Shown piece by piece: positions 21,342 to 36,004 of a stretch of DNA of 60,760 nucleotides. A model generated the notes under the pieces. That model was not told where the DNA came from and did not search any database. It was given only the letters and a program-made list of their open reading frames with translations. Numbering within the stretch: the stretch's first letter is position 1; every line of letters begins with the position of its first letter. Origin of the DNA: Thermodesulfobacteriota bacterium (GTDB lineage: Bacteria > Desulfobacterota > Desulfuromonadia > Desulfuromonadales > Geopsychrobacteraceae); the NCBI GenBank assembly GCA_028282145.1, contig JANQIN010000230.1, positions 1 to 60,760 of the forward strand, given 5' to 3'. A program made the position numbers and the translations under genes.

Positions 21342-21965
21342 ATGACCGACTTGCATTTCACCTATTGTGACACTCATCTCTGGTGGGGCATCCATCAACC
21401 GACCAACGTTCTGAGCAACCTGGTCTTTATCCTTCTGGCGATCTGGGTGTGGCAGCAACCTTCTGCCCGCTGGCACCGTTTCGGCCTGCTGGCCATTGCC
21501 GCCGGCTCGGTTGTCTGGCACCATACGGCGCTTTCCTGGGCTCTGTGGCTCGATATCGGCACGATTGCTCTGTGGGCCTTTCTGTTTGCCGTCGATACCG
21601 CCCGTGTCACCCAAAGACCGGCCTGGATTTTTCTGCTGAGTGCTGCCGGTGCACTGATGGTCTCCGCAGCCGCAGGAAGGCTTCTCGCAGGTCCCCTGCC
21701 CCTGCTGTCGGGTGCTTTCATACCCTTCGCCGCCCTTTTACTCAGCGGGGCTCTGTCCTCACGATTGCGGCCGCCGGTCCGAAGAACCTTTCTCTTCAGT
21801 CTGGCGATGATTCTCCTGGCGATGGTCATGCGGGAGATCGATCTTCTGGGATGCAGTGAAGGTGCCATCGGAACCCATTGGCTCTGGCACACGGCCGCCG
21901 GCCTCTCTCTGTTGGCCCCGATTCGCTTTCTTATCGACCTGGATCAGGGAGAAAAACGAGTCTGA
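21342..21965 (+). CDS. Polytopic membrane protein, ceramidase-like family (tentative)
   Basis: YCDTHLWWGIHQPTNVLSNLVF resembles the N-terminal motif of the alkaline-ceramidase family. Seven hydrophobic segments with conserved His residues. Confidence 0.5.
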   Translation: MTDLHFTYCDTHLWWGIHQPTNVLSNLVFILLAIWVWQQPSARWHRFGLLAIAAGSVVWHHTALSWALWLDIGTIALWAFLFAVDTARVTQRPAWIFLLSAAGALMVSAAAGRLLAGPLPLLSGAFIPFAALLLSGALSSRLRPPVRRTFLFSLAMILLAMVMREIDLLGCSEGAIGTHWLWHTAAGLSLLAPIRFLIDLDQGEKRV

Positions 21966-24265
21966 CGACGGAACAGTTCTTTCACCTTCTCCACCTCCAG
22001 AGGAAACTGAATCAGATCACCGCGGGCCCACAGGGAGACCTGGTCGGAAAAGTTGGTGGAATGAAAGGCGCCGTCCTGGCCGCCGAAGAGGACGAAATAA
22101 TTGGCGTTGGGATCGCTCATATCCGACAGATGGCGGGACTGGCTGCCGAAGGAGGAGGGATGTTTCTCCACAGTCATGGTCCCGACCGATTTGAATACGG
22201 TTTCCACCGAACCTGGGATAGGCAGATCGTAAAGACGGAATGAGCGCCCCAGGTAAGGCACTCTCCCGAGCAGGTGTTCGACGTTGACCCGGTGGATGTC
22301 CCCCCAGGTTTTCCCGTCACGTGCCAGCGGGGAAGCTTTCTGAAGAGCACGGAGCAGCAGGCGCCTTACCAGAGTCGGGTCGGCCTCCGACATATCTTTC
22401 TGCAACTGCTCGGGCAGATAGGTCGTTGCCCACCAGAGCTGATCCTCCCCAGACCGGTCCATGGTCTCGTAAAACTTTGGAGCAAACTCCGCCACCACCG
22501 CCTGGTGCAGATAGGCTCCCTTGGAATCCACCGAATAATGGCCGTCCCAGGACGACAGATGCCGCACCACAGGCCCTGCTCCGGTTGGCAGCTTCTGCCC
22601 CTTGACCAGGGCCACCATCGCCCGACTCAACCGATGATTGCTCAGGCTGTAGGCGTCCCGCTGGAGCCGCTTCAACTCCGCCAAAGACCATTTCTCCTGA
22701 CCGGCCAGTCGTTCATAGATCCTGAGAATCCGATCTTCCCGCGGGAAGGTCCATCCCAGTCGGGTTGGGGGAGTCCGGGCCGGTCGGTTGTTGCTGGAAG
22801 CGATCACCCCGTCAGGCGGGTTAATGATAAAGGGGAGATCTTCAACCGTCAGTATTCGTTGCCAGGCCCGATCACTTTCTTCGGGCATCATCCAGATATC
22901 TTTGGGAAAGTCGGTTTTTCGGGCAGGAACCCAGGCACCGAGAATATGCCCGATGGCTCCATCACGGTCGGCAAAGATCAGGTTTTGCCCAGGCATCGCG
23001 TAGTCCCGAAGGGATGCCTTGATATCCTGCCACCCCTTGGCGCGCATCACGCGCAACATGGACGTGATGTCGTCACTGATCTGGTGCCCCATCCAGCGGA
23101 TGGCAAAATCCCGGCCTTCCGGAAAGGAGAACAGCGAGGTGTCGGAAATCACCGGGCCATAGGGAGACAGTCGGTTGGTCACGGTTTTGTCCCAGAGAAA
23201 CCGCCGCTTGATCGTATGCGTCTCGGTGGTCATCCCTTCGAGCCCGGTCACTTCTACAAGATCGGACGACCATTGACGCATATTGGTCCCGCCCCAGGCG
23301 ATTTCAGGGTTCCGTCCCAGAGCGATCACGGGAATTCCGACCGGCATCAGTCCTACGGCGTGATAACTGGGGGATTTGACCCCCGCCAGAACCCAGAGGT
23401 TCGGCAGGGTAAATCCGAGATGAGGGTCGTTAGCCAACAGAGCGCCACCGGAGCGGGAGCGAGAGGCCGATACCGCCATCGAGTTGCTGCCGGTCCGTGC
23501 AAAGGGTTCCAGAAGAGAGGAAAAGAGATCGGCCTGAGGATGGCTCGCCAGTTTTGTGACGTGCTCCGGCGAGGAAAGACTGGCAAAGGAGGTGACTTTC
23601 TCTTTCTGGGTGGCGGCAAACCGCTGCCAGATTTGAGGCCAGTCTTTCTTTCCCCGGAAAGGCAGGAGTTTCAGCAGAGCCGTCCAGTTGATATCGGCCG
23701 CTCCCAGGCGCCCCAACTGGACGCTGTCCTCCATCGTCCAGGGTTCATTATTCATCCCCAACAGGCCCATCTCGCGGGGCAGGACACGAACATGGGATTT
23801 ATAGAAGTTGATTCCTTCGACGTAGGCTTCCAGCCACTGTCGCCCTTCAGGAGGCATCCGGTCAACAATGGGTTGGGCTGACCGGCCAAAGCCCAACGCA
23901 CGAAGGGCCGCATCGATATCGGTCGTGAAGGGTCCGGCCATTTCGGACAAGCGCCCTGTCGCAATCCTTTTGCCCATCTCCATCTGCCCCAACCGCAGAT
24001 GGGCATGCACCAGTCCCATCGCCAAAGCGGCATCCCGGTCGGTCTTGGCGTCGATAAAGGGGATCTGATGCTCGTTCCAATAGATGGTGACCGGCTGCTC
24101 AAACGGAGGAGAGGGCAGGGAATCCAGCAGCCCCAAGCGTTCTTGAGTACTGACAACAACCGTTCCGGGAAAGGACGTCAACCCCACACAGCCTGCAGCG
24201 ACGATCAGGGTCAGAAGAATCAGGATGCGAACAGACCGTGATTTGAAGGACATAGACGACCTCAT
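21944..24265 (-). CDS. Penicillin-amidase/AHL-acylase family Ntn hydrolase, lipoprotein
   Basis: Lipobox LIVAAGC. GSNSMAVS...LLANDPHLGF around the expected nucleophile Ser. 773 aa, the typical size. Confidence 0.9.
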   Translation of the reverse strand: MRSSMSFKSRSVRILILLTLIVAAGCVGLTSFPGTVVVSTQERLGLLDSLPSPPFEQPVTIYWNEHQIPFIDAKTDRDAALAMGLVHAHLRLGQMEMGKRIATGRLSEMAGPFTTDIDAALRALGFGRSAQPIVDRMPPEGRQWLEAYVEGINFYKSHVRVLPREMGLLGMNNEPWTMEDSVQLGRLGAADINWTALLKLLPFRGKKDWPQIWQRFAATQKEKVTSFASLSSPEHVTKLASHPQADLFSSLLEPFARTGSNSMAVSASRSRSGGALLANDPHLGFTLPNLWVLAGVKSPSYHAVGLMPVGIPVIALGRNPEIAWGGTNMRQWSSDLVEVTGLEGMTTETHTIKRRFLWDKTVTNRLSPYGPVISDTSLFSFPEGRDFAIRWMGHQISDDITSMLRVMRAKGWQDIKASLRDYAMPGQNLIFADRDGAIGHILGAWVPARKTDFPKDIWMMPEESDRAWQRILTVEDLPFIINPPDGVIASSNNRPARTPPTRLGWTFPREDRILRIYERLAGQEKWSLAELKRLQRDAYSLSNHRLSRAMVALVKGQKLPTGAGPVVRHLSSWDGHYSVDSKGAYLHQAVVAEFAPKFYETMDRSGEDQLWWATTYLPEQLQKDMSEADPTLVRRLLLRALQKASPLARDGKTWGDIHRVNVEHLLGRVPYLGRSFRLYDLPIPGSVETVFKSVGTMTVEKHPSSFGSQSRHLSDMSDPNANYFVLFGGQDGAFHSTNFSDQVSLWARGDLIQFPLEVEKVKELFRRQTRFSP

Positions 24266-24328
24266 GGTCCAGCGACGACTCTCCCTTTGTCCTGTGAGTA
24301 CAAGCCAGGGTCCCTGCCCATTTACCGA

Positions 24329-24703
24329 TCAGGCACTGAAAAAGGGCGAGTCTTTCCGATGGATGACAAAAGCGGCTGCACTGCAGACAAAGACCACAAT
24401 CGCCATTCCGAAGAGGGTGCCACCATCGTTGGCGACTTCGATTCCCAGTACAAACAGATGGCTCAGTATGGCTCCTGCCATGATCCCCATGGCTCCCAGG
24501 GCACCCATCCAGGCGGTCCGGGGTACCAATAAAAGAAGGGCCACAACAAGTTCGGCAATGCCGGAGGCATAGCGTCCAAGAGGTTCGACCCCAAGCTGAG
24601 AGAAGATCGCGACGCTTTCCTCGGCACCGGTAAATTTAAAAAAAAGCGTTTGTAACAGAATCACAGCCGGCACAATACGAAGAATCCAGTCCATTGCTTT
24701 CAT
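24329..24703 (-). CDS. DoxX-family membrane protein, paralog C
   Basis: Four TM helices. FKFTGAEESVAIFSQLGVEP...PRTAWMGALG...GAILSHL. Start moved to the second ATG (24703, MKAMDW) because GGAGG lies 5 nt upstream and it aligns with paralog B. Confidence 0.8.
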   Translation of the reverse strand: MKAMDWILRIVPAVILLQTLFFKFTGAEESVAIFSQLGVEPLGRYASGIAELVVALLLLVPRTAWMGALGAMGIMAGAILSHLFVLGIEVANDGGTLFGMAIVVFVCSAAAFVIHRKDSPFFSA

Positions 24704-24845
24704 CAGAGCCTCCATAAAAAGGGTACCACACCCCGACCGAAATCTGGCCGTCGGGGACGGGCTGCTCCAGGGAGCAACCCCAGTCTATCGGGCGCAAGCC
24801 ATGTCCCTTTAAAGACCGGATAAAGAATCGGTAAATCTTCTCACA

Positions 24846-25208
24846 TCAGTCTTCCACCACAAAAGTAACGTCCCGCCGATGAATCAGGAAGGCGGTCAGG
24901 CAGCAAACGAAAACCACCACTGCCAGCGCAAACAGCAGGTTGATTCCAAGAACCAGCAGGTGACTGAGAATCGCACCCCCCATGAGAACCATCCCGCAAA
25001 TGCCGCCCAGCCAGGCGGTGCGCGGAATTACCAGCAGAAAAATCACGATCGCTTCTACCAGAGCAGTCCCGACCCGTCCCCAAGGTTCGACACCCAGCCG
25101 GGAAAAGAGATCGACACTTTCCGGTGCGTTGCCGAATTTAAAGACCAGGCTCCACAAAAGGATTGCAGAGGCAACAGATCGAACGGTCCAGTCCAGAACT
25201 TTGATCAT
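24846..25208 (-). CDS. DoxX-family membrane protein, paralog B
   Basis: MIKVLDWTV...FKFGNAPESVDLFSRLGVEP...PRTAWLGGICG...GAILSHL. AGGAG RBS before ATG 25208. Lacks the EV.xDGG segment present in paralogs A and C. Confidence 0.8.
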   Translation of the reverse strand: MIKVLDWTVRSVASAILLWSLVFKFGNAPESVDLFSRLGVEPWGRVGTALVEAIVIFLLVIPRTAWLGGICGMVLMGGAILSHLLVLGINLLFALAVVVFVCCLTAFLIHRRDVTFVVED

Positions 25209-25255
25209 GGCGAACTCCTGTACGGCTCCAGCTCCGCAGGAGGTCTTGAAAACCT

Positions 25256-25651
25256 CTAAAATGTATGGCCGATCAGCGGCAATTTCTTCCGATGAATCCA
25301 CATGACAACCAGAGTGGAGAGAATCACCAGAAGCATCAGACTGACCAGCAGGCCGCCGTCACCCTGGACTTCCATGCCCAGGGTGAACGTATGGGCCAGC
25401 AAGGCGCCGAGCATCGTCCCAAAACCCAGAATGGCACCGTAGTGGGGCATCTTGGTCAGCAACAGCACGGCGGCCACCCCTTCGATCACGGCAATCACAA
25501 GACGGGTCCCTTCAATCCCCAGGGTCTGGAAAACATAGACGCTTTCCTGAGCTCCGGAAAATTTCATCAACGCGGCATAGCCCAGGATAAAGGCGGCGAT
25601 CAACTGGAACGCCAGTGAAACCCCCTTGACCGTCGGTGACAGAGTTTCCAT
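25256..25651 (-). CDS. DoxX-family membrane protein, paralog A
   Basis: MKFSGAQESVYVFQTLGIE...GALLAHTFTLGMEVQGDGG. Its ATG shares one nt with the stop of the upstream FMN protein (TGATG). Confidence 0.8.
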   Translation of the reverse strand: METLSPTVKGVSLAFQLIAAFILGYAALMKFSGAQESVYVFQTLGIEGTRLVIAVIEGVAAVLLLTKMPHYGAILGFGTMLGALLAHTFTLGMEVQGDGGLLVSLMLLVILSTLVVMWIHRKKLPLIGHTF

Positions 25652-27165
25652 CAGTAGGCCCCTTCCTGGTACAGGTTGCTCGAATCCAGTTCAGCGATCG
25701 AGGTCTTGCCGATGGAGGCCAGCAATTCTTGGTGATCGTGAACCAGACTGGCAACGTAAGCAGCAACCCGTTCAGATTTTTCCTCCACATCCAGACCGTG
25801 CTGGAGATGGGGATGGTGGGTGGTAATACCCACCGGACAGGTGTTTTTGTTGCACTGAAGTGCCTGAATACACCCTATTCCCATCATAAACCCTCGGGCG
25901 GTATAAATGGCATCCGCGCCCAGAGAAAATGCCATGAATTGCCGCCCCGGGTTGACCAGCTTACCGGCAGCCATAAGCTTCAACCGTTTCCGGGCGCCCT
26001 CCTCCACGAGGATCTTCTGCACCTGGGGCAATGCGGCGAAGATCGGTACCCCCATATCGTCCATAAAGGCCTTGGGGGCAGCTCCCGTCCCTCCTTCGGC
26101 GCCATCGATACTGATGTAATCCGGGAAACTGTCGAGCCGTTTCATCGCCTGCACCAGCTCTCGGAACTCGTCGGGGCATCCCAGGCAGAGCTTGATCCCG
26201 ACCGGTAGACCGGACAATCGCTGCACCCGGTGGATAAAGGCCGCGGTGGCATCGGGCGTGGTACATTCGGCATGAAAAGAAGGACTGATGACATCCTGTC
26301 CCATGGGAACGCCGCGGAGTTCGGCAATCTCCGGGGTGATCTTCTCCTTGGGCAGCAACCCGCCTTTCCCCGGCTTGGCCCCCTGGGACAGTTTGATCTC
26401 GATCATCCGGACCTGAGGCAGCGCAGCAATCTCCTGCAGCTTGCCTTCATTGAGGGTGGCATCGCTGTTGCGGACACCGAACTTGGCCGTTCCCATCTGA
26501 AAAATCAGGTCGCAATCCTCCATCAGATGGTATTTGGGGTAACCTCCCTCACCGGTGTTCATGGGGATACCGGCCTTTCTGGCACCACGCGCCAGCGCCC
26601 GGACCGCCCGTTCTCCCAGAGCACCGTAACTCATGGCGCTGATAATGATCGGGTGATTCAGGGTGTAGGGCTGCGGTGCGCCTCGCTCCTCTCCGAAGAT
26701 CAGCCGGTAGGGTCGAATCCGGTCCTTGCTCAACGGATACATCGAGTGACGGAGCTTGATCTCTGAATCGTCAAACAGGAGCTGGGACCCAAACGCCGAC
26801 GACGAATCGATCCCCTTGGCCTTGCGGTAGACCTCGCTTCGTTCAACTCGGCTGAACGGCTTTTCTTCGGTATCGTTCATAAAGAGGTACTGACGGAATT
26901 CAGGTCCGACCGATTCGATCATGTACCGCAATTGGGCGATAATGCCGAAATTGGCCAGCAGAGTATGCTTCTTCTGGCCGTACAGGTAGTACAGGTTGAC
27001 CAGTGTCAGCAGCAGAAAAGAGACGGTCAGGAAGTGGTAGTTAAAACTGACCCTGACGCCCAGAAAACCGAAGAGCAGGGTCAACGCCGGTAAAGCCACA
27101 TTGACCACATTGGCCAGCTTCTCCAGATCCACCTGCAGACTGCCTGAAAGCTTCAATTGCCCCAT
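25651..27165 (-). CDS. Membrane-anchored FMN-binding glutamate-synthase-family protein (GltB domain-2 homolog)
   Basis: Two N-terminal TM helices, then NTGEGGY, KLSQGAKPGKGGLLP and IDGAEGGTGAAP motifs typical of the FMN domain of glutamate synthase. Confidence 0.85.
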   Translation of the reverse strand: MGQLKLSGSLQVDLEKLANVVNVALPALTLLFGFLGVRVSFNYHFLTVSFLLLTLVNLYYLYGQKKHTLLANFGIIAQLRYMIESVGPEFRQYLFMNDTEEKPFSRVERSEVYRKAKGIDSSSAFGSQLLFDDSEIKLRHSMYPLSKDRIRPYRLIFGEERGAPQPYTLNHPIIISAMSYGALGERAVRALARGARKAGIPMNTGEGGYPKYHLMEDCDLIFQMGTAKFGVRNSDATLNEGKLQEIAALPQVRMIEIKLSQGAKPGKGGLLPKEKITPEIAELRGVPMGQDVISPSFHAECTTPDATAAFIHRVQRLSGLPVGIKLCLGCPDEFRELVQAMKRLDSFPDYISIDGAEGGTGAAPKAFMDDMGVPIFAALPQVQKILVEEGARKRLKLMAAGKLVNPGRQFMAFSLGADAIYTARGFMMGIGCIQALQCNKNTCPVGITTHHPHLQHGLDVEEKSERVAAYVASLVHDHQELLASIGKTSIAELDSSNLYQEGAY

Positions 27166-27174
27166 TCCGAGATC

Positions 27175-28557
27175 CTATTGTTTGATGACGAACATCTTTT
27201 CCAGAGTCATATCCCGAAGGGTGTGGCCGATGCCTCCCACCCCGAGCCCGGACTGCTTGTAGCCCCCGAACGGCATCCAATCGACCCGGAAAGCGGTATG
27301 GTCATTGACCATCACTGCCAGCCCTTCCAAATCGCTGATAGCACCCAGCATGACCTGCAGATCGTTGGTAAAAACCGCCGCTTGAAAAGCAAACTCCACC
27401 CCGTTGGCTTGCTCGATCGCCTCGTCCAGGGAATCATAGCTGTTGACACAGACCACCGGACCGAAAACCTCCTGGGTCATGAGCTCGGTATCGGCAGCAA
27501 CGTCCCGAAGCAGAGTCGGGGCATAGGAGGTGTCGGACAGTTTCCGGCCCCCGCAGAGCAACGTAGCGCCACCGGTGACGGCATTCCGGACCCATCGGTC
27601 CACACGGTCCACTTCCCGCGGTAGGATTAACGGTCCGACGTCCGTCTCTTCCAGGGTCGGGTCACCCACCCTGAGACCCTGCACGGCCTGTTGCAGGCCG
27701 TCACAGAGGGCATCGGCGATCTCCTTGTGGGCAAAGATACGTTGTACCGAAACACAGACCTGACCGGCATGGTAATAGCCCCCCTTGGTCAACAGAGGAA
27801 TCGCTTTATCCAGGTCTGCAGTCCTGTCCACAATCACCGGAGCAGCCCCCCCATGTTCCAAAGCACAGGTCGCCCCCGGAGGGAGCTTGGAGCGAAGGTA
27901 CCAACCGACCCGGCCGGAGCCGATAAAGGTGAGGAAAGATATCCGCTCATCGGTCACCAGCCGTTCGGCCACCTCATTCTCACAAAGAACCATCTGACAC
28001 CAGTGTTCCGGCAGACCGGCCTCGTAAAGGATCTGAATCAGGTTACGACAGGATAAGGGGGTGGTCGATGCCGGCTTTACCAGGACCGGGCAGCCGGCCG
28101 CCACAGCGGGTATCGCCTGATGGACGATCAGATTAAACGGGTGATTAAAGGCACTGATCGCGAGTACCACACCACGGGGCACTCGTCGGGTAAAGGCCAT
28201 GCGACCCTCCGAGGCTTTATTGAGCCCCATGGGGATTTCCTCCCCGTGCAGGTGTGTCAGTTCCTTGATTGCGACCTTGATCCCGTCGATCGCCCGATCG
28301 ATCTCCACCCGGGAATCGACCAGGGGTTTCCCCCCTTCCCGGGCCGCCTCCAGAGCCAACTCTAACCGGCGTTCCCGGATCAGGTCAGCGGCCTTTTCCA
28401 GAATCGCCACCCGTTGTTCGACCGACAGCCAATGGGATTTATCCGTATACAGTGCGTAGGCGTTTGCCAGGTGCGACAGGGCTTCCTCTTCGGACTGCAA
28501 GGGCAGTGTCGCCATGGGTGCCTGATCGTAGGCCGAAAGAATTTCGAGTGTGCTCAA
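27175..28557 (-). CDS. NAD(P)-dependent aldehyde dehydrogenase family protein
   Basis: ALDH fold motifs (FTGS-like FIGSGRVG, LEHGG, catalytic GQVCVSVQR, PFGGYKQSG). Start set at TTG 28557 (LSTLEILSAYDQ...) with AGGAGG 6 nt upstream. The ORF-track start at 28608 is less likely. Confidence 0.9.
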   Translation of the reverse strand: MSTLEILSAYDQAPMATLPLQSEEEALSHLANAYALYTDKSHWLSVEQRVAILEKAADLIRERRLELALEAAREGGKPLVDSRVEIDRAIDGIKVAIKELTHLHGEEIPMGLNKASEGRMAFTRRVPRGVVLAISAFNHPFNLIVHQAIPAVAAGCPVLVKPASTTPLSCRNLIQILYEAGLPEHWCQMVLCENEVAERLVTDERISFLTFIGSGRVGWYLRSKLPPGATCALEHGGAAPVIVDRTADLDKAIPLLTKGGYYHAGQVCVSVQRIFAHKEIADALCDGLQQAVQGLRVGDPTLEETDVGPLILPREVDRVDRWVRNAVTGGATLLCGGRKLSDTSYAPTLLRDVAADTELMTQEVFGPVVCVNSYDSLDEAIEQANGVEFAFQAAVFTNDLQVMLGAISDLEGLAVMVNDHTAFRVDWMPFGGYKQSGLGVGGIGHTLRDMTLEKMFVIKQ

Positions 28558-28735
28558 AGGCCGCCTCCTACAGTACCGATCCGGCGTCGGGACCTGGAAT
28601 CTTTTCAAACGTTCAGAGTGAATTCACCGCCGACGGGAAAGGGAAATGGCCGCGAATGATGACTAAAAAAATCATACTTCAACACCGACTTTTTTCAACC
28701 ATTTCAGGTAACTGCGATTTTTTTACCGGCAAGGT

Positions 28736-29569
28736 TCAGGGTGCCAGTTCTGCAGGATCGGGCGCCAAATCGTCGGTGTAGATTTCGCGGCGCCACCGGA
28801 AAGGCAGATCGACAATGGTCCCAGGCGTATCGATCCGATAGAGGGCCCGAAAAATCTCCAGTAAAACGGTTTGTTGCTGATCGACGTTCCCCGGCTCCCC
28901 CAAAGGATGGCCAAACGGCCATTTCAAAAAAACGGTCCGAGGGGGACGCACTGCTTCCGAATAGCTCCGAACAATAGAAATACCGATAGTAGGGATGCCG
29001 CAGCGTTCGATTTCACGTTGGATCAATCCGACGGATTGATTGCAGATCCCTCACGACGGTGTGAGAAGGACCAGATCAACCTGATCGTTTTTCAACAGGC
29101 GACCGACCTCAGCGCCTTGGCGGATCAAGGTTGGGATATGGCGACCATCCACATGTCCCATAAAGCCGAAATGTCTGCGGGAAAGGCTTCCTACCCGTCC
29201 CGCATCGACCCAGTCCCGCAATCGATCCAGGGGGAGGATAATATTCGGGTCCTTTTCCGCATCTCGATGGTCGTAATAGTCGTGGGTAATGGTGAAGTCC
29301 TCGAAAAGAGTCTCACCCGAGAGTTCCCGATAGCTGGGATCACCGTCGGGATCGGTCATATCAAACGGTGCCTGAGAAGAATGGTGGATCCCCGAAGTTG
29401 TCACCAGGCCAACCCGGGCTTCAGCAAGCGCCCGGGTGACGGGGACCCAGGGTACCGCCTGATCACTGAAACTGCGAGGTTCGTAATTCTGTGCCAGCCG
29501 ATCCGACAACCCCGGAATCAGGTTCGCGGCCCGTGCGATAAGCCGATTTTTCGTTCTCTCCCAGGACAT
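28736..29569 (-). CDS. GrdB-family (glycine/sarcosine/betaine reductase component B-like, PF07355-type) selenoprotein with in-frame UGA (Sec173), U-x-x-C motif
   Basis: The ORF-track pieces 29051..29662 and 28736..29026 share one frame and are separated only by TGA 29053..29051. Read-through gives ...DLVLLTPS-U-GICNQSVGLIQREIERCGIPTIGISIV...FGHPLGEPGN. A SECIS-like hairpin follows the UGA. Start at ATG 29569 (MSWERTK) with AAGGAG RBS. Confidence 0.8.
29022..29040 (-). promoter_or_regulatory. Candidate bacterial SECIS stem-loop
   Basis: The mRNA reads AUCAAUCC-GUC-GGAUUGAU: a perfect 8-bp stem starting 10 nt after the UGA, with G and U in the small apical loop. Manual fold only. Confidence 0.55.
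29051..29053 (-). other. In-frame UGA, predicted selenocysteine codon
   Basis: Coding-like sequence in the same frame on both sides. The UGA is two residues before a Cys (UGIC). Confidence 0.75.
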
Positions 29570-29790: not shown

Positions 29791-29828
29791 TAAAAGGCCG
29801 GCCCTTTGGGGAGGGTCGGCCTTATTCT
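29791..29828. terminator. Intrinsic terminator hairpin (ends the liv...yaiI transcript on the minus strand; also terminator-like when read on the plus strand)
   Basis: GGCCGGCCCT-ttgggg-AGGGTCGGCC. On the minus strand it is followed by UUUUAU, on the plus strand by UUAUUCUC. The single imperfect pair is G-U on the plus strand and A-C on the minus strand. Confidence 0.6.
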
Positions 29829-29954: not shown

Positions 29955-30407
29955 TCATCTCTTGAGATGTCGTGCCAAAAAGCGGTCCAGCTGATTGGCG
30001 AAGTGGGTTCGATCGGTCTTGGAAAAGGACGCCGGACCGCCGGTCTCGACGCCGGAGCTGCGCAGTTCGTCCATAAAGTTGCGCATCGCCAGCCGCTCGC
30101 CGATATTCTCTTCGCTGAAAAACTCCCCCCGGGGCTCGAGAGCATGACCACCCTTTTCGATCACCGCTGCCGCCAGAGGGATATCAGCGGTAATCACCAG
30201 ATCCCCTGCGGCCATCCGTCGAACGATCTCCTGATCCGCGACATCAAAGCCGGAGGCAACCTGTACCGTACGGATATGACGGGACCGAGGGACCTGAAGG
30301 GAACGGTTCGCTACGAGAGTCAGGGGAACCTGCACCCGGTCGGCGGCCCGATAAAGGATCTCCTTGACCACCCGGGGACAAGCATCGGCATCAATCCAGA
30401 TCTGCAT
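29955..30407 (-). CDS. yaiI: YaiI/YqxD family protein (DUF188, UPF0178; PIN-like fold)
   Basis: [22 protein letters not shown]...[10 protein letters not shown]...[13 protein letters not shown] is collinear with E. coli YaiI. ATG 30407 overlaps the upstream gene by 17 nt. Confidence 0.9.
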
Positions 30408-30702
30408 CGGTCGTTCTCTGAGAGGAAAGAGGGTGCGCCACCAGTCGACGTTTCTCGACGACAGACAGCTTCTTGAGGGCGGCTTCCCGCCGACTGGCAC
30501 TGGAACGACAGTGCCCGGTTTCCAGATAAACCAGATGTTCCGGCACCCGGCCCCGAAAATATTTAGCGCCTGTCCCGCGTTGGTGCTGAGACAAGCGCCG
30601 TTGGATATCGGTAGTGATGCCGGTATAAAGGGATCGGTCGGAGCAGAGAAGGATATAGACCTTCCAGTTTCTTTTGGACCAATCAGCCCTGGGGTTCTTC
30701 AA
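30391..30702 (-). CDS. GIY-YIG nuclease-family protein (UPF0213/YhbQ-like)
   Basis: [35 protein letters not shown]. The only in-frame start upstream of the domain is TTG 30702. Overlaps the HepT-like gene by 20 nt. Confidence 0.85.
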
Positions 30703-31060: not shown

Positions 31061-31771
31061 CTAATGGCCGCCCAGATAGGCGTTCTGAACATCTTCGTTG
31101 GACAGCAGGGTCGATGCCTGGTCTTCGAGAACGATATTCCCGACTTCCAGGACATAACCCCGATGTGCCAGTTTGAGGGCAGCGCGAGCGTTCTGTTCCA
31201 CCAGCACCACGGTCACCCCCGCTTCATTGATCTGGCGTACCGTATCGAAGATGCGCTTGATAATCAAGGGGGCCAATCCCAGGCTGGGTTCGTCCAACAG
31301 CAAAAGCTTGGGATCGGCCATCAGGGCCCGTCCAATGGCGAGCATCTGTTGTTCGCCGCCGGAGAGGGTTCCGGCCAGCTGCTCTCGCCGTTCCTTCAAC
31401 ACCGGAAACAGCTCGTAGATCCAGTCTCTGGTTTTGATTTCCTTGGCCGCATCCCGGGTGGTGAAGGCCCCCAGGTGGAGGTTTTCCGCCACCGTCAGAG
31501 TCCCGAAGACGCGTCGCCCTTCCGGCACCTGTGCTACACCGGTTTTGACCACTTGATGCGGCTTCATCTTATGGAGTGCCATCCCGTTGAACAGGATCTC
31601 TCCCTCGCAGGCCGGAACCAGCCCGGAGATCGCCATCAGTGTGGTCGATTTCCCGGCACCGTTGGCCCCGAGGATGGTCACGATCTCCCGCGGTTCCACC
31701 CGCAGGTTGATCCCGTGAAGCGCCTCCACATTGCCGTATTTCACTTTTAGATCTTTAATGACCAGATCCAT
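31061..31771 (-). CDS. livF: Branched-chain amino-acid ABC transporter ATP-binding protein LivF
   Basis: GANGAGKSTT, LSGGEQQMLAIGRAL, LLLDEPSLGLAP. Confidence 0.92.
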   Translation of the reverse strand: MDLVIKDLKVKYGNVEALHGINLRVEPREIVTILGANGAGKSTTLMAISGLVPACEGEILFNGMALHKMKPHQVVKTGVAQVPEGRRVFGTLTVAENLHLGAFTTRDAAKEIKTRDWIYELFPVLKERREQLAGTLSGGEQQMLAIGRALMADPKLLLLDEPSLGLAPLIIKRIFDTVRQINEAGVTVVLVEQNARAALKLAHRGYVLEVGNIVLEDQASTLLSNEDVQNAYLGGH

Positions 31772-31813
31772 TTTTTATCCTTAAAGCTTTAAAAGGTTTT
31801 TCTAGCCATACTG

Positions 31814-31974
31814 TAATGTCGTAACCGTTTTGCGCTCTGTGACTTCGGAGTGATTTTTGGTGATGCCAAGGCCTGAAAGCGCAGGCCTAGCCCAAGCTAA
31901 GCCGAGCTTTCAGAACGCCGGCAGCAGCGAAAAGGACCAGAAGGCGCGAGCAGCACAAATGGCTTACGCCATTA
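31814..31974. repeat. Roughly 160-bp imperfect palindromic (long hairpin) element inserted between livG and livF
   Basis: The left arm starts TAATGTCGTAACCGTTTTGCGCT... and the reverse complement of the right arm starts TAATGGCGTAAGCCATTTGTGCT.... A perfect 8-bp core CTGAAAGC (31873-80) pairs with GCTTTCAG (31906-13). An apical GCCTAGC/GCTAAGC stem has a 4-nt loop. The right end overlaps the livG stop codon. Confidence 0.6.
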
Positions 31975-32742
31975 CTCCTCATCATCGTCGGGGCCGAGAT
32001 AGGCCTCAATGACTTTTGGATTATTTTTGACCGATTCGGGATCGCCCTCGGCGATCTTGCAGCCGTATTCGAGCACCACCAGCTTGTCGCAGGCCTGCAT
32101 CACCAGCGACATGTCGTGCTCGATCAGAAAGACGGTAATTCCCCGATCCCGCAGTTTACGGATCAGTTCCAGCAGGGCATCGGTCTCCTGGTGGTTCATC
32201 CCGCCCGCCGGTTCATCCAGAATCAGCAGACGGGGTTTGGTCGCCAGGGCGCGGGCAATCTCCAGCAATCGCTGATTCCCGTAGGAGAGGTTGGACGCCA
32301 GATTGTTGGCTTCATGCCGCAAGCCGACAAATTCAAGTTCCTCCAGCGCCAGGTCCAGCGCGGCCTGTTCTTCGGCGCGCGCCTTGGGGGACTGAAGGAA
32401 GGCGCCGAAGATGCCAGTGGTCATCCGGCAGTGCTGACCGGCGAGGACGTTCTCCAGGACCGACATCTTCTGAAACAGACGGATCGTCTGAAAGGTGCGG
32501 GCGATCCCGGCATCGACAATCTTATGGGTCCGCAACCCCTTGATCGACGCGCCATCAAACAGGACCTGTCCCTGATCGGGGATGTAGTTGCCAGTGATCA
32601 GGTTAAAGACGGTGGTCTTGCCGGCACCGTTAGGACCGATCAGACCGACGACTTCTCCTTCGTCGACGGAAAAGGAAACGTCGTTGACCGCGACCAGACC
32701 GCCGAACCGTTTGGTCATTCCTTCGACGCGAAGCAGGTTCAT
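31972..32742 (-). CDS. livG: Branched-chain amino-acid ABC transporter ATP-binding protein LivG
   Basis: MNLLRVEGMTKRFGGLVAVNDVSF...GPNGAGKTT. ATG 32742 overlaps the livM stop (ATGA). The ORF-track start at 32853 lies inside livM. Confidence 0.92.
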   Translation of the reverse strand: MNLLRVEGMTKRFGGLVAVNDVSFSVDEGEVVGLIGPNGAGKTTVFNLITGNYIPDQGQVLFDGASIKGLRTHKIVDAGIARTFQTIRLFQKMSVLENVLAGQHCRMTTGIFGAFLQSPKARAEEQAALDLALEELEFVGLRHEANNLASNLSYGNQRLLEIARALATKPRLLILDEPAGGMNHQETDALLELIRKLRDRGITVFLIEHDMSLVMQACDKLVVLEYGCKIAEGDPESVKNNPKVIEAYLGPDDDEE

Positions 32743-33704
32743 GAAGAGACCTCCTTCCCGGCTTTGGGTAAGCGGAAGAACCGTGGCCCGGGGGGAAGAA
32801 TCCCCTGAGTGCGGAAGATCATCATGATCATCATCGCCAGACCAAAAAACCACATACGGGCGTTGGCAAACTCTCCGACATACGCCCGCAAAAACTCAGG
32901 CAGGCCGATAATCAAAAAAGCCCCCAGCAGAACTCCGGTGATATTGCCGGAACCGCCGATAATAACGATGATAAAAATCAGCACCGACTCCCAGAAGGTA
33001 AAAGACTCGGGAGAGATAATCGTCATCTTGCTGGCATAGAGAGCTCCGGCCATGCCGGCCCATGCCGCCCCGATGGCAAAGGCCATCAGCTTTGTCCGAC
33101 CGGTGTTGATACCACTCCCCTCGGCGGCAACTTCATCTTCCCGCAAATAGTCAAGCGCCCGGCCGAAGCGACTGTTGCGGAGCCTGTAGAACAGGAAGAC
33201 GGTCATGGCCACAAAGCCCCAGATCAGATAAAGAAACTCATGGGGTTTGCGAATTTTGTAGCCGAAAAGAAACGGTCGGTCGATACCGAAGATTCCGTTG
33301 GGACCGCCGGTCAGTCCAAAGATGTCGTTGACTAGGGCAATCCGCAGGATCTCACCGACACCGACGGTGACGATCAGCAGGTAGTCTCCCCGCAGATGAA
33401 TAATGGGACGACAGACCAACGCTCCTGCAGCCGCGGCCACCAGACCGCAGATCGGTAACGACCAGAGGATGGGTATATCCAATTGGGTATTGAGAATAGC
33501 CGCACAGTAGGCACCGACCGCATAAAAGGCGGCATGGCCCATATTGTAGAGACCGGCATTACCCAGAATCACATTGAGGCTCAGCGCCAGTATGGCGTAA
33601 AGGCCGACGCTGTTCAGGACCTCCAGCCAGAAGCGGTTGAGCACCAGAGGGCTGGCTGCCAGGAGGGCGAAACTGAGAAGATAGCTAATCAGTGTCCGAT
33701 TCAT
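32739..33704 (-). CDS. livM: Branched-chain amino-acid ABC transporter permease LivM
   Basis: Polytopic permease with a typical LivM pattern (GNAGLYNMGHAAFYAVGAY). Confidence 0.9.
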   Translation of the reverse strand: MNRTLISYLLSFALLAASPLVLNRFWLEVLNSVGLYAILALSLNVILGNAGLYNMGHAAFYAVGAYCAAILNTQLDIPILWSLPICGLVAAAAGALVCRPIIHLRGDYLLIVTVGVGEILRIALVNDIFGLTGGPNGIFGIDRPFLFGYKIRKPHEFLYLIWGFVAMTVFLFYRLRNSRFGRALDYLREDEVAAEGSGINTGRTKLMAFAIGAAWAGMAGALYASKMTIISPESFTFWESVLIFIIVIIGGSGNITGVLLGAFLIIGLPEFLRAYVGEFANARMWFFGLAMMIMMIFRTQGILPPGPRFFRLPKAGKEVSS

Positions 33705-34609
33705 CAGATCTTGTCCGCCACCCGCTCACCGAGAAGCCCGGTGGGCCGCACGATCAGGATAAAAATAAGCACACCAAAGGCGATCGCATCTTTCCAGGCG
33801 ATACTGATATAGGCCGCACCCAGGGCCTCAACCAGGCCCAGCAACAGCCCGCCCAGCATCGCACCGGGAATATTGCCGATCCCACCGAGGATGGCAGCGG
33901 TAAAGGCCTTGAGGCCATAGACCCAGCCCATGGTGAAGTTGACCTGTCCGTAGTAGAGGCCAACCATCAAGCCGGCAGAGCCCCCTAGAGCCGGGCCGAG
34001 CAGGAAGACCAGCATGATCACCCGGTCCACGTTGATCCCCATCAACGCTGCGGCCCCCTGGTCGATGGCGGCAGCGCGGATCGCGGTTCCGGTACGGGTC
34101 TTCTGAATAAACAGATAGAGGGCGACCATCAGCACCACCGACGCCACCAGAATCAGAATCCGCATCAGCGGCACCGGCATACCGAAGAGGTGAATCACCG
34201 TGTCGGGCATGATGTTATGGGGGTAGACCTGAATATTGGGGCCGTAGACCAGCATGATACTGTTCTGAATAAAAATCGACGCCCCCAGCGCCGACACCAC
34301 CGCCGACAGACGGGGCGACTGCCGTAGCGGTTTATAGGCCGACCGCTCCAGGATCATGCCGACCAGAGCCACCAGTCCCATCACCATCAACGCCAGGATC
34401 AACACTCCCAGCAGCGGACCGACCCTGTCCGACAGGCCGAAGGAGGTCAACAGAGTAAAACCGAGATAGGCTCCGAGGGTGAACAGGTCGCCATGCGCAA
34501 AGTTGATCAGCTTGAGCACCCCATAGACCATGGTGTATCCCAGCGCGATCAGCGCATAGATACCGCCAACGGCCAGGCCGTTGGTCAGCTGTTGAAAAAA
34601 CTCTTCCAT
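33704..34609 (-). CDS. livH: Branched-chain amino-acid ABC transporter permease LivH
   Basis: MEEFFQQLTNGLAVGGIYALIALGYTMVYGVLKLINFAHGD is the canonical LivH N-terminus. The ORF-track start at 34675 is less likely. Confidence 0.9.
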   Translation of the reverse strand: MEEFFQQLTNGLAVGGIYALIALGYTMVYGVLKLINFAHGDLFTLGAYLGFTLLTSFGLSDRVGPLLGVLILALMVMGLVALVGMILERSAYKPLRQSPRLSAVVSALGASIFIQNSIMLVYGPNIQVYPHNIMPDTVIHLFGMPVPLMRILILVASVVLMVALYLFIQKTRTGTAIRAAAIDQGAAALMGINVDRVIMLVFLLGPALGGSAGLMVGLYYGQVNFTMGWVYGLKAFTAAILGGIGNIPGAMLGGLLLGLVEALGAAYISIAWKDAIAFGVLIFILIVRPTGLLGERVADKI

Positions 34610-34725
34610 GAATTGACTTCTTCGGGAAACGCCACGGGGTGGTGGGCCTGAACCCACCACCCCGGACTTGCACATCAGTTAATGCTTTGGCCTCTCTCGG
34701 AGGGGCCGGAAGTTTATCCTCAGGC

Positions 34726-35847
34726 TTAAGGCTGGAGCACAAAGGCCCCGGAAGCGTCCACCTTGTAGACCTTATAGACCTCGCCGACCCGGTCGCCCTT
34801 GGCGTTAAAGGCGATGGGGCCGGTCAGACCGTTAATCTTGGTGCCCTTCTTTTTCAGGAAGGCGGCAATCTTCTCAGTGTCAGTCGATTCGGCACCCTTA
34901 ATCGCTTCGACGATCGAGAGGAAACCGTCACCGGAGAGCACAGCCCAGATGGAACCGGGGGCGCTGCCGTACTTGGCACTGTAATCGGCGACAAATTTCT
35001 TGGCTTTGGGGTAGGGAAGATCCTGGGGAACCGGCGGACTCAGGAAGTAGAAACCCTCGGCAGCACCTTTACCGGCGATCTTCACCAGATCGGGGTTGTT
35101 GGTGGCGTCACCGCCGATAAAGGGCACGTTCCAGCCGATCTGCTTCTTTTGCTTCAGCAGCAGGCCGGCTTCCGGATAGTAACCGGTAAACAGAACCGCA
35201 TCCGGACCTTTCCCCTTCATTTTGGTCAGGATCGCCGAGTAATCCCGCTCACCGGGGGTCAGAGCATCGGCGAAGACAACGTCGATTCCCATCCCCTTGA
35301 GCAGGCCCATGGTCTCGTCGGCCAGACCTTTGGCATAGCTGGTGTTGTCATGTAGAACAGCCACCTTCTTGAACCCTTTGGCCTGCAGGGTCTGAGCAGC
35401 CACGCGACCCTGCTCGTCATCACGGGGGCTGGTACGCAGGAAGTATTTCAGACCTTTTTCGGTCAGGCGAACGGCAGTGGAACCGTTGGCGATCTGTACC
35501 AGAGGCTCCTCGTCAAAGATCATTTGACCGGCTTCGGTAATGGAGCTGCCGTAGTTACCGACAACCGCTACCACATCGCGAGTGGTCAGACGGGTAGCGG
35601 CCAGAGCAGCGGTACGAGGATCTCCGCCGTCATCTTCCATGACCACTTCCACCTTTTTACCCAATATACCGCCGGCGGCATTCACTTCCGCAGCCAGCAG
35701 TTCGATAATCTGCTTCATCTCCTGGCCTTCGCTGGCCCAGCTTCCGGTCATCGGTGCCATGACACCGATCTTGACCGTTTTGGCAGCCAATGCCGGCGTC
35801 ACCGCCAGCGCCAGAAGCACCAGGGCGAACATCATCTTCCTCAACAT
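34726..35847 (-). CDS. livJ: Branched-chain amino-acid ABC transporter substrate-binding protein
   Basis: Signal peptide, then KIGVMAPMTGSWASEGQ... Type-I periplasmic binding fold. Confidence 0.9.
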   Translation of the reverse strand: MLRKMMFALVLLALAVTPALAAKTVKIGVMAPMTGSWASEGQEMKQIIELLAAEVNAAGGILGKKVEVVMEDDGGDPRTAALAATRLTTRDVVAVVGNYGSSITEAGQMIFDEEPLVQIANGSTAVRLTEKGLKYFLRTSPRDDEQGRVAAQTLQAKGFKKVAVLHDNTSYAKGLADETMGLLKGMGIDVVFADALTPGERDYSAILTKMKGKGPDAVLFTGYYPEAGLLLKQKKQIGWNVPFIGGDATNNPDLVKIAGKGAAEGFYFLSPPVPQDLPYPKAKKFVADYSAKYGSAPGSIWAVLSGDGFLSIVEAIKGAESTDTEKIAAFLKKKGTKINGLTGPIAFNAKGDRVGEVYKVYKVDASGAFVLQP

Positions 35848-36004
35848 AGTCGTACCTCCCGTTCGAATGTTCGAAATCGATCAAAGCTGAATCGTTCCTG
35901 TATAGCATGCACCCAGAATGCAGGCAATAACTGAGTCTTCTCTCTGGCGTCCCCCTCCTTAGTTGTATATGATTGAAGCCCACTATCTTAATCAGGAGGG
36001 ATTC

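Follow-up and report, generated by a model that had tools for sequence, protein, structure and literature searches.

A probable gene mosaic around a conserved aldehyde dehydrogenase, FMN protein and DoxX core in a Geopsychrobacteraceae contig

The window analysed here is a stretch of 60,760 nt from contig JANQIN010000230.1 (assembly GCA_028282145.1, Thermodesulfobacteriota bacterium, Geopsychrobacteraceae). It contains a run of seven open reading frames, all on the minus strand at 21944-29569 (~7.6 kb), which encode a selenoprotein, an aldehyde dehydrogenase (ALDH), a membrane-anchored flavin mononucleotide (FMN) protein of the glutamate synthase (GltS) type, three DoxX proteins and a lipoprotein acylase (Table 1). 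A first-pass annotation had proposed that the seven genes form a single system. A co-directional run of this size is not unusual for a bacterium, and its meaning had to be judged by conservation elsewhere. Gene content and conservation pattern, which are observed directly, point to a different arrangement. The run is probably a mosaic around a conserved core of ALDH, FMN protein and DoxX. By the same judgement, the core is a derivative of a recurrent operon which encodes a thiamine pyrophosphate (TPP) enzyme, ALDH, the FMN protein and a DoxX_2-type protein; here the TPP gene is missing from the locus and there are three copies of DoxX. The PrdB-like selenoprotein, an orphan, and the periplasmic acylase are, as part of this joint claim, lineage-specific neighbours which lie outside the conserved unit.

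The FMN protein has a single detectable domain, PF01645, at residues 166-487 of its 504 residues. Two hydrophobic segments (residues 17-41 and 45-63) precede the domain; the initial description of a homologue of the GltS FMN domain anchored by two transmembrane (TM) segments is borne out. The C-x5-C-x4-C pattern of GltS is kept and aligns with C1137, C1143 and C1148 of Synechocystis Fd-GltS. Alignment to 7mfm and 1llw also places equivalents of GltS residues E903, Q969, K972 and R992. All of these cofactor and catalytic positions, again a direct observation, are invariant in 121 of 121 FMN-protein sequences. We take the cysteines to be 3Fe-4S ligands and the other four residues to serve the 2-oxoglutarate site, as presumably in GltS. 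PF01645, the cysteines and the four residues are what the protein has in common with the large subunit of glutamate synthase (GltB/GltS). The differences are considerable. GltS has ~1500 residues, whereas the shorter FMN protein lacks the glutamine amidotransferase, the central domain, the C-terminal beta-helix domain and the small subunit. Its pair of N-terminal TM helices and its DoxX partner are in turn not found in GltS. It scores 110.6 bits against the glutamate synthase model NF008730, for which the cutoff is 1047. Literature searches for the 'FMN-binding glutamate synthase family', for YerD and for DoxX together with glutamate synthase found no functional study.

FMN-protein orthologues share 60-78% identity, in proteins which the sources assign to Planctomycetota, Myxococcota and Proteobacteria. 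Among loci with DNA downstream of the FMN gene, a DoxX_2-like gene (127-136 aa) follows it directly in ~22 of 23 independent orthologue contexts (L082-L086, L088-L093, L095, L097, L151, L165-L171 and L174), and in nine loci with called genes the FMN stop and the DoxX start overlap or are no more than 13 nt apart. The sole exception is L087, which has a convergent gene after the FMN gene instead of DoxX; this minus-strand frame (L087:3200-4546, 448 aa) has a YADD motif, resembles a reverse transcriptase and starts ~15 nt after the FMN gene. DoxX is lacking beside the FMN paralogues with 34-46% identity.

Three DoxX copies are found only in the window lineage, which comprises the window and the near-identical contig L081; other loci have a single copy. 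The naming of all three as DoxX stands for DoxX3, which passes the Pfam models DoxX and DoxX_2 (32.2 and 28.9 bits), and may extend to the other two, which are its paralogues. DoxX2 reaches 22.3 bits against DoxX_2, below the cutoff of 26.3, and DoxX1 has no Pfam match of its own. The copies are of two kinds: DoxX1 is similar to the partner in the FMN clade at 69-75% identity, and for DoxX2 and DoxX3 the similarity is to the partner in the 60-66% clade. Like other members of the family (DoxD of thiosulfate:quinone oxidoreductase, Mycobacterium tuberculosis DoxX and MhqP), these are small multi-TM proteins, and by analogy they would plausibly act as the membrane or quinone-side partner of a soluble redox enzyme. 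They differ in the partner, which is a GltS-type FMN/FeS protein rather than DoxA, a rhodanese or a superoxide dismutase. The partners of M. tuberculosis DoxX-SseA-SodA were looked for among the called genes beside FMN-DoxX in the examined loci, and no rhodanese or superoxide dismutase is present there.

ALDH, the FMN protein and DoxX are adjacent in at least five other lineages. Of the 119 best FMN clusters, seven lie on a contig that also carries one of the best ALDH clusters; five of these were examined, and the genes are adjacent in all five. The order varies. It is FMN-DoxX-TPP-ALDH in L168 and L170 and TPP-ALDH-FMN-DoxX in L169 and L174; in L171 FMN-DoxX is divergent from ALDH. L174 is the closest match to the window, with an identical 9-nt gap between ALDH and FMN genes and an identical 1-nt overlap between FMN and DoxX genes. 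Of the shared neighbourhood that had been expected, this part is confirmed: the three genes recur together, while the selenoprotein and the acylase do not join them in the compared loci outside the window lineage. The additional partner is the TPP enzyme, with which the ALDH orthologue is paired in five of six independent contexts (L168, L169, L170, L172/L173 and L174). L172/L173, picked independently of FMN matches, have TPP-ALDH only. The partial gene upstream of ALDH in L174 is 67% identical to the TPP enzyme of L169, and the spot which the TPP gene holds in L174 and L169 is occupied in the window by the selenoprotein gene. The TPP enzyme passes NF006187 ('acetolactate synthase large subunit') with 842 bits against a cutoff of 509. 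No published description of a TPP-ALDH-FMN-DoxX operon was found. In L140 (3-908 and 968-2395) an acetolactate-synthase-like TPP enzyme, 37% identical to that of L169, is encoded directly before a distant FMN paralogue (39%); the TPP-FMN link may therefore not be confined to the DoxX-associated subfamily.

Among proteins of solved structure, the ALDH has its nearest relatives in Burkholderia ALDHs and in moss ALDH21 (PDB 5mz5, 293 bits), which is an NADP-dependent succinate-semialdehyde dehydrogenase (SSADH). Residues R121, Y296 and R457 of ALDH21 bind the substrate carboxylate (bioRxiv 10.64898/2026.01.13.699213). Equivalents of all three are present in the window ALDH and are kept in 119-120 of 120 orthologues. 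In cyanobacteria, a thiamine diphosphate (ThDP)-dependent 2-oxoglutarate decarboxylase and an SSADH turn 2-oxoglutarate into succinate (PMC10418658). Loci related to the window resemble this bypass (SynPCC7002_A2770, sll1981, MaKGD) in the TPP enzyme directly upstream of ALDH and in the SSADH triad. As described, the bypass has neither a membrane FMN/3Fe-4S protein nor DoxX, and the window itself has no TPP gene; its ALDH is of the ALDH21 type, and no cyanobacterial SSADH is among the PDB matches at E <= 1e-60. We take A2771 to be the bypass member beside SynPCC7002_A2770. The cyanobacterial decarboxylase is said, in the 2011 work of Zhang and Bryant, to have been annotated at first as an acetolactate synthase.

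The selenoprotein is nearer to PrdB than to GrdB, and the label "GrdB-like" which it had been given does not hold. It scores 157.7 bits against the PrdB model TIGR04483 (cutoff 300), with residues 41-262 matching positions 20-237 of 238. GrdB models give 61-68 bits; the score is 61.5 against a cutoff of 602 for TIGR01917, and the broad subfamily model TIGR01918 is barely passed (67.5 against 65.45). The protein is under the cutoff of both the PrdB and the GrdB equivalog models. Common ground with PrdB and GrdB lies in the U-x-x-C redox motif, the full-length PrdB similarity and the TGA codon with its selenocysteine (Sec) insertion sequence (SECIS) hairpin. In contrast to PrdB of D-proline reductase, no reductase partners were found beside it, and the conserved neighbour of its family, if there is one, is a rhodanese. 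The PrdA/GrdE pyruvoyl partner, GrdA, GrdC/D and PrdC are not among the annotated genes of the window, in agreement with the absence of glycine-reductase partners remarked on earlier.

Conservation of the selenoprotein was assessed in its 80 closest genomic loci (54-68% identity; Desulfuromonadales and Nitrospirota), taken with flanks of up to 10 kb. The motif can be located in 78 of these loci, and the Sec codon is TGA in all 78. It is followed by a hairpin, AAUCARUCC-GUG-GGAYUGAU, the stem of which begins, in the window, 13 nt past the U of UGA and which lies within the conserved peptide U-G-I-C-N-Q-S-V-G-L-I-Q. The hairpin is kept in 79 sequences and shows covariation, with compensatory A-U/G-C changes (26 versus 24 unique sequences) and U-A/C-G changes. 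This decoding signal is observed directly; judged by sequence, the protein is a genuine selenoprotein with a bacterial SECIS and with Sec at TGA 29051-29053. Rfam searches gave no match at gathering scores anywhere in the window and, close to the selenoprotein gene, no credible one at E <= 1. Hundreds of homologues in the protein collection end at ~173 aa. A few full-length database homologues (P0002-P0006) have W at the Sec position, or R in P0005. The W entries apparently reflect translation of TGA as Trp by some pipelines; such proteins look free of Cys and Sec and probably are not.

None of the other cluster genes accompanies the selenoprotein in these loci. ALDH, the FMN protein, the three DoxX proteins, the acylase and DUF188 (encoded just upstream of the run) have zero tblastn matches in the 80 loci, and because of this absence the selenoprotein is placed outside the unit. 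PrdA/GrdE, GrdA, GrdC/D and PrdC are not conserved neighbours in these loci either. Clustering of neighbouring reading frames gives a sole recurrent neighbour, a two-domain rhodanese (PF00581) of ~318 aa whose N-terminus resembles a signal peptide. Of the 73 loci in which the upstream DNA is long enough, 37 (e.g. L001, L004-L006) have its gene directly upstream and co-directional; there is none in the window. The rhodanese and the PrdB-like selenoprotein may act together in the trafficking of sulfur or selenium. A 2006 listing includes 'Proline reductase' selenoproteins in Anaeromyxobacter and Geobacter uraniireducens (PMC1794560). These are assumed to belong to the same orphan PrdB-like family; if so, the family has been catalogued yet is uncharacterised. 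No functional study of the PrdB-like selenoprotein was found in the literature.

The acylase was correctly recognised as a lipoprotein N-terminal nucleophile (Ntn) hydrolase. It has a lipobox (LIVAAG/C), one N-terminal hydrophobic segment and a PF01804 match which spans the full length. At the predicted self-cleavage site, G/SN(S), Ser260 corresponds in alignment to the first residue of solved beta chains and is the predicted beta-chain nucleophile. PF01804, the cleavage site and Ser260 are shared with the penicillin/cephalosporin acylases (7ea4, glutaryl-7-ACA acylase, PvdQ). The window acylase is only distantly related to characterised members, and it carries a lipoprotein anchor. Its best PDB match is the D-succinylase 7ea4 (E = 3e-36), and it scores 16.4 bits against the PvdQ model NF051460, which has a cutoff of 950. 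The acylase is absent from ~30 independent FMN or ALDH contexts and from the 80 selenoprotein loci. Apart from the window, L081 is the one locus in which it adjoins the core. As L081 is 96-100% identical to the window, it represents the same lineage and not an independent observation.

The GltS-type 2-oxoglutarate/glutamate site of the FMN protein and the content of the four-gene operon together suggest, as the simplest reading, a route from glutamate to succinate. This chemistry is put forward tentatively as a possible function of the core operon. We infer substrates, the direction of electron flow and the role of DoxX as follows. The FMN/3Fe-4S domain would face the cytoplasm and run the glutamate-synthase half-reaction backwards, so that L-glutamate (or a close 2-amino dicarboxylate) would be converted at the FMN to the 2-imino acid and then to the 2-oxo acid. 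From FMN, electrons would move to the 3Fe-4S cluster and then to DoxX, the translationally coupled subunit, which would hand them to the quinone pool. The TPP enzyme would decarboxylate 2-oxoglutarate to succinate semialdehyde, which the ALDH21-type ALDH would oxidise to succinate. In this organism another part of the genome would have to supply the decarboxylase gene, unless the semialdehyde has a different origin. In more general terms, a membrane FMN dehydrogenase which passes electrons through DoxX to quinone, with ALDH acting on a downstream aldehyde, is plausible. The fuller claim is that the FMN-DoxX pair is a previously unrecognised respiratory L-glutamate:quinone oxidoreductase which, with the TPP enzyme and ALDH, forms a four-gene glutamate-to-succinate route; this we regard as doubtful, if worth stating.

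Several observations weigh against the glutamate-to-succinate route and against the mosaic around the core. The 60.8-kb window and L081 give only noise-level matches to a TPP gene, with not even a remnant present, so the proposed pathway is incomplete at this locus. Among ~17 independent FMN-side contexts, most FMN-DoxX loci have no ALDH or TPP gene nearby; FMN-DoxX thus need not serve a 2-oxoglutarate/semialdehyde route. A first FMN-anchored sample (80 metagenome loci and six look-ups) contained no ALDH, TPP enzyme or acylase. Four of the six ALDH-anchored loci were chosen for a suspected FMN match, which biases the frequency of the link upward; the unbiased lower bound is ~6%. Among NCBIfam models, the ALDH scores best with those for lactaldehyde, phosphonoacetaldehyde and sulfoacetaldehyde dehydrogenases (342-292 bits, all below cutoffs), and the SSADH subfamily model TIGR01780 ranks under them with 263 bits against a cutoff of 646. 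The likeness of the TPP enzyme to the cyanobacterial decarboxylase is one of annotation and gene context. At the level of transcription, folding gave no terminator in the selenoprotein/ALDH spacer and none in the DoxX3/acylase spacer. All seven genes could still be co-transcribed in this organism, and so could the acylase gene with the core, from which it is separated by a 63-nt gap in which no terminator was found; no functional tie between the acylase and the core was seen.

The proposal that all seven genes form one membrane redox or catabolic system held that the acylase releases an amine, that the FMN protein and DoxX oxidise it and that ALDH takes the resulting aldehyde. The layout of the locus speaks for it: the genes are co-directional with short gaps, an upstream terminator-like hairpin and a convergent downstream gene bound them, no internal terminator was detected and the full order is kept in L081. 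However, L081 is too close a relative to count as independent, and the claimed partners are missing both from the 80 loci of the selenoprotein and from the ~30 FMN or ALDH contexts. The compartments differ as well: the acylase is a lipoprotein of the periplasm, and the FMN domain and ALDH are placed in the cytoplasm. The extra partner that does recur is a decarboxylase-type TPP enzyme, itself absent from the window, which implies a 2-oxo acid and not an amine as the intermediate. The route would then start with an amino acid and lead through a 2-oxo acid and an aldehyde to an acid, and not from amine to aldehyde. A seven-gene system is accordingly very improbable, and the route from an acylase-released amine is not supported.

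Two other readings accept the core and assign it a different function. FMN-DoxX could be a module against quinone, thiol or electrophile stress, comparable to MhqP or DoxX-SseA-SodA, with ALDH as a general aldehyde detoxifier in its neighbourhood and without a defined catabolic pathway. The DoxX-type MhqP of Bacillus is reportedly tied to quinone resistance. Glyoxalase-family genes occur near FMN-DoxX in L165 and L167, most FMN-DoxX pairs are isolated, in surroundings that vary from locus to locus, which is common for stress genes, and a thiol/selenol protein adjoins the core in the window. In addition, PMC7907618, citing Nambi et al. 2015, describes a DoxX relative with a characterised role in the homeostasis of thiols and oxidative stress. 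This reading is nonetheless unlikely: the invariant GltS residues of the 2-oxoglutarate/glutamate site argue for a specific 2-oxo or 2-amino acid substrate, the ALDH appears to keep a binding site for a dicarboxylate semialdehyde and usually has a TPP enzyme beside it, and no rhodanese or superoxide dismutase gene, as in the known system, adjoins FMN-DoxX in the examined loci. Alternatively, the core could act on another anionic 2-amino or 2-oxo acid, or the 2-oxo acid could be condensed rather than decarboxylated. An example would be cysteate or phosphonoalanine, converted via sulfo- or phosphonopyruvate and a C2 aldehyde to sulfo- or phosphonoacetate. The ALDH does score slightly higher as a phosphonoacetaldehyde (295 bits) or sulfoacetaldehyde (292 bits) dehydrogenase than as an SSADH (263 bits), and NF006187 gives the TPP enzyme the name of acetolactate synthase. 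All of these ALDH scores are far under the family cutoffs, though, and the nearest solved relative with a named substrate is the ALDH21 SSADH, of which the carboxylate triad is kept. The examined loci show no genes for the transport or cleavage of sulfonates or phosphonates. We rate a different substrate or a condensation as improbable.

The layout of the run was described accurately at the outset: all seven frames were recovered at the coordinates and with the domains first reported, and the spacings and the in-frame TGA check out as well. The stop of the FMN gene and the start of DoxX1 do share 1 nt, and the gap between ALDH and FMN genes is 9 nt. Further spacers are 178 nt (selenoprotein/ALDH), 130 nt (DoxX2/DoxX3) and 63 nt (DoxX3/acylase). 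The ALDH gene starts with TTG behind AGGAGG, and L081 gives the same 460-aa call; for DoxX3 the likelier start is the ATG at 24703, which is preceded by GGAGG.

Table 1. Features of the seven-gene run and its surroundings (window coordinates)
Feature	Position	Strand	Remarks
Terminator-like hairpin	29792-29821	minus	GGCCGACCCU...AGGGCCGGCC, then UUUU
PrdB-like selenoprotein, 277 aa	28736-29569	minus	In-frame TGA 29051-29053; U-G-I-C motif
UGA and SECIS-like hairpin	29022-29053	minus	AUCAAUCC-GUC-GGAUUGAU, folded
Sigma-70-like promoter match	28671-28698	minus	TTGAAA-16-TATGAT; 10/12 consensus
Aldehyde dehydrogenase (ALDH), 460 aa	27175-28557	minus	PF00171, 403 bits
Membrane-anchored GltS-type FMN/3Fe-4S protein, 504 aa	25651-27165	minus	PF01645, 294 bits
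DoxX1, 131 aa	25256-25651	minus	DoxX_2-type; 38% identity to DoxX3
DoxX2, 120 aa	24846-25208	minus	Paralogue; 52% identical to DoxX3, 30% to DoxX1
DoxX3, 124-128 aa	24329-24715	minus	PF07681 and PF13564
Lipoprotein Ntn hydrolase (penicillin-amidase family), 773 aa	21944-24265	minus	PF01804, 484 bits

Operon boundaries, as we infer them, would depend on a small number of signals. The terminator-like hairpin at 29792-29821 follows the DUF188 gene and precedes the selenoprotein gene, and it forms the upstream limit of the locus. It folds with -18.4 kcal/mol (z = -3.44), and 3 of 200 shuffles fold as well. The 178-nt and 130-nt gaps had been considered as possible sites of terminators or promoters. 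A promoter match is present in the 178-nt spacer; it is a match to consensus only, and the region has 4 such sites where 3.2 are expected. No terminator-like fold was found in this spacer. In the DoxX2-DoxX3 spacer (24716-24790, minus strand) two adjacent hairpins are followed by a U-run. The pair folds with -30.7 kcal/mol at chance level (z = -1.3) and is not a convincing terminator; it is possible that it acts as a weak attenuator.

The genes around the run are varied. At 21342-21965 on the plus strand, a 207-aa multi-TM protein without a Pfam match is encoded; its gene converges on the acylase gene with a 22-nt 3' overlap and is kept in L081. A DUF188 (YaiI/YqxD) gene at 29955-30500 lies just upstream of the cluster. 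DUF188 genes are also found, in divergent orientation, beside 43%-identity FMN paralogues in two metagenome loci (L107:3-329 and L109:1445-1882). Further upstream there is a complete, co-directional Liv-type amino-acid ATP-binding cassette (ABC) transporter at 31061-35847 on the minus strand, with a binding protein, two permeases and two ATPases; it is set apart from the cluster by the DUF188 gene and the terminator-like hairpin. A plus-strand gene at 35963-38917 encodes a 984-aa fusion of a CheB methylesterase and a CheR methyltransferase, followed by PAS domains.

Two of the comparison loci also have neighbours of their own. In L168 (3099-5458) a DinB_2/FGE-sulfatase gene and a Methyltransf_33 gene are immediately upstream of the FMN gene, which the latter overlaps; we take the pair to resemble the ergothioneine genes EgtB and EgtD. 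Directly downstream of TPP-ALDH-FMN-DoxX in L169 (13361-15972) are genes for YceI, BufA1 (PF10048), an MbnB/TglH/ChrH-like protein (PF05114) and HvfC_N (PF09836). This set presumably resembles a bufferin-type cluster for a ribosomally synthesised and post-translationally modified peptide, a kind which we believe often has its own DoxX gene. The DoxX cluster of H. influenzae in PMC7907618 contains families apparently similar to those in L169 (UPF0276, DUF2063).

With these results the seven-gene selenoprotein/acylase system falls away, and the ALDH-FMN-DoxX core remains. Stand-alone proteins of the 'FMN-binding glutamate synthase family' are abundant, and no assigned function for them was found in the literature. 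Conservation gives them a DoxX partner and, in several lineages, also a decarboxylase-type enzyme and a semialdehyde dehydrogenase. For selenoprotein biology, the association of the PrdB-like family with a rhodanese offers a second lead. If the glutamate-to-succinate reading is true, it would provide a function for a large group of FMN-binding GltS proteins and a defined redox partner for a DoxX subfamily.

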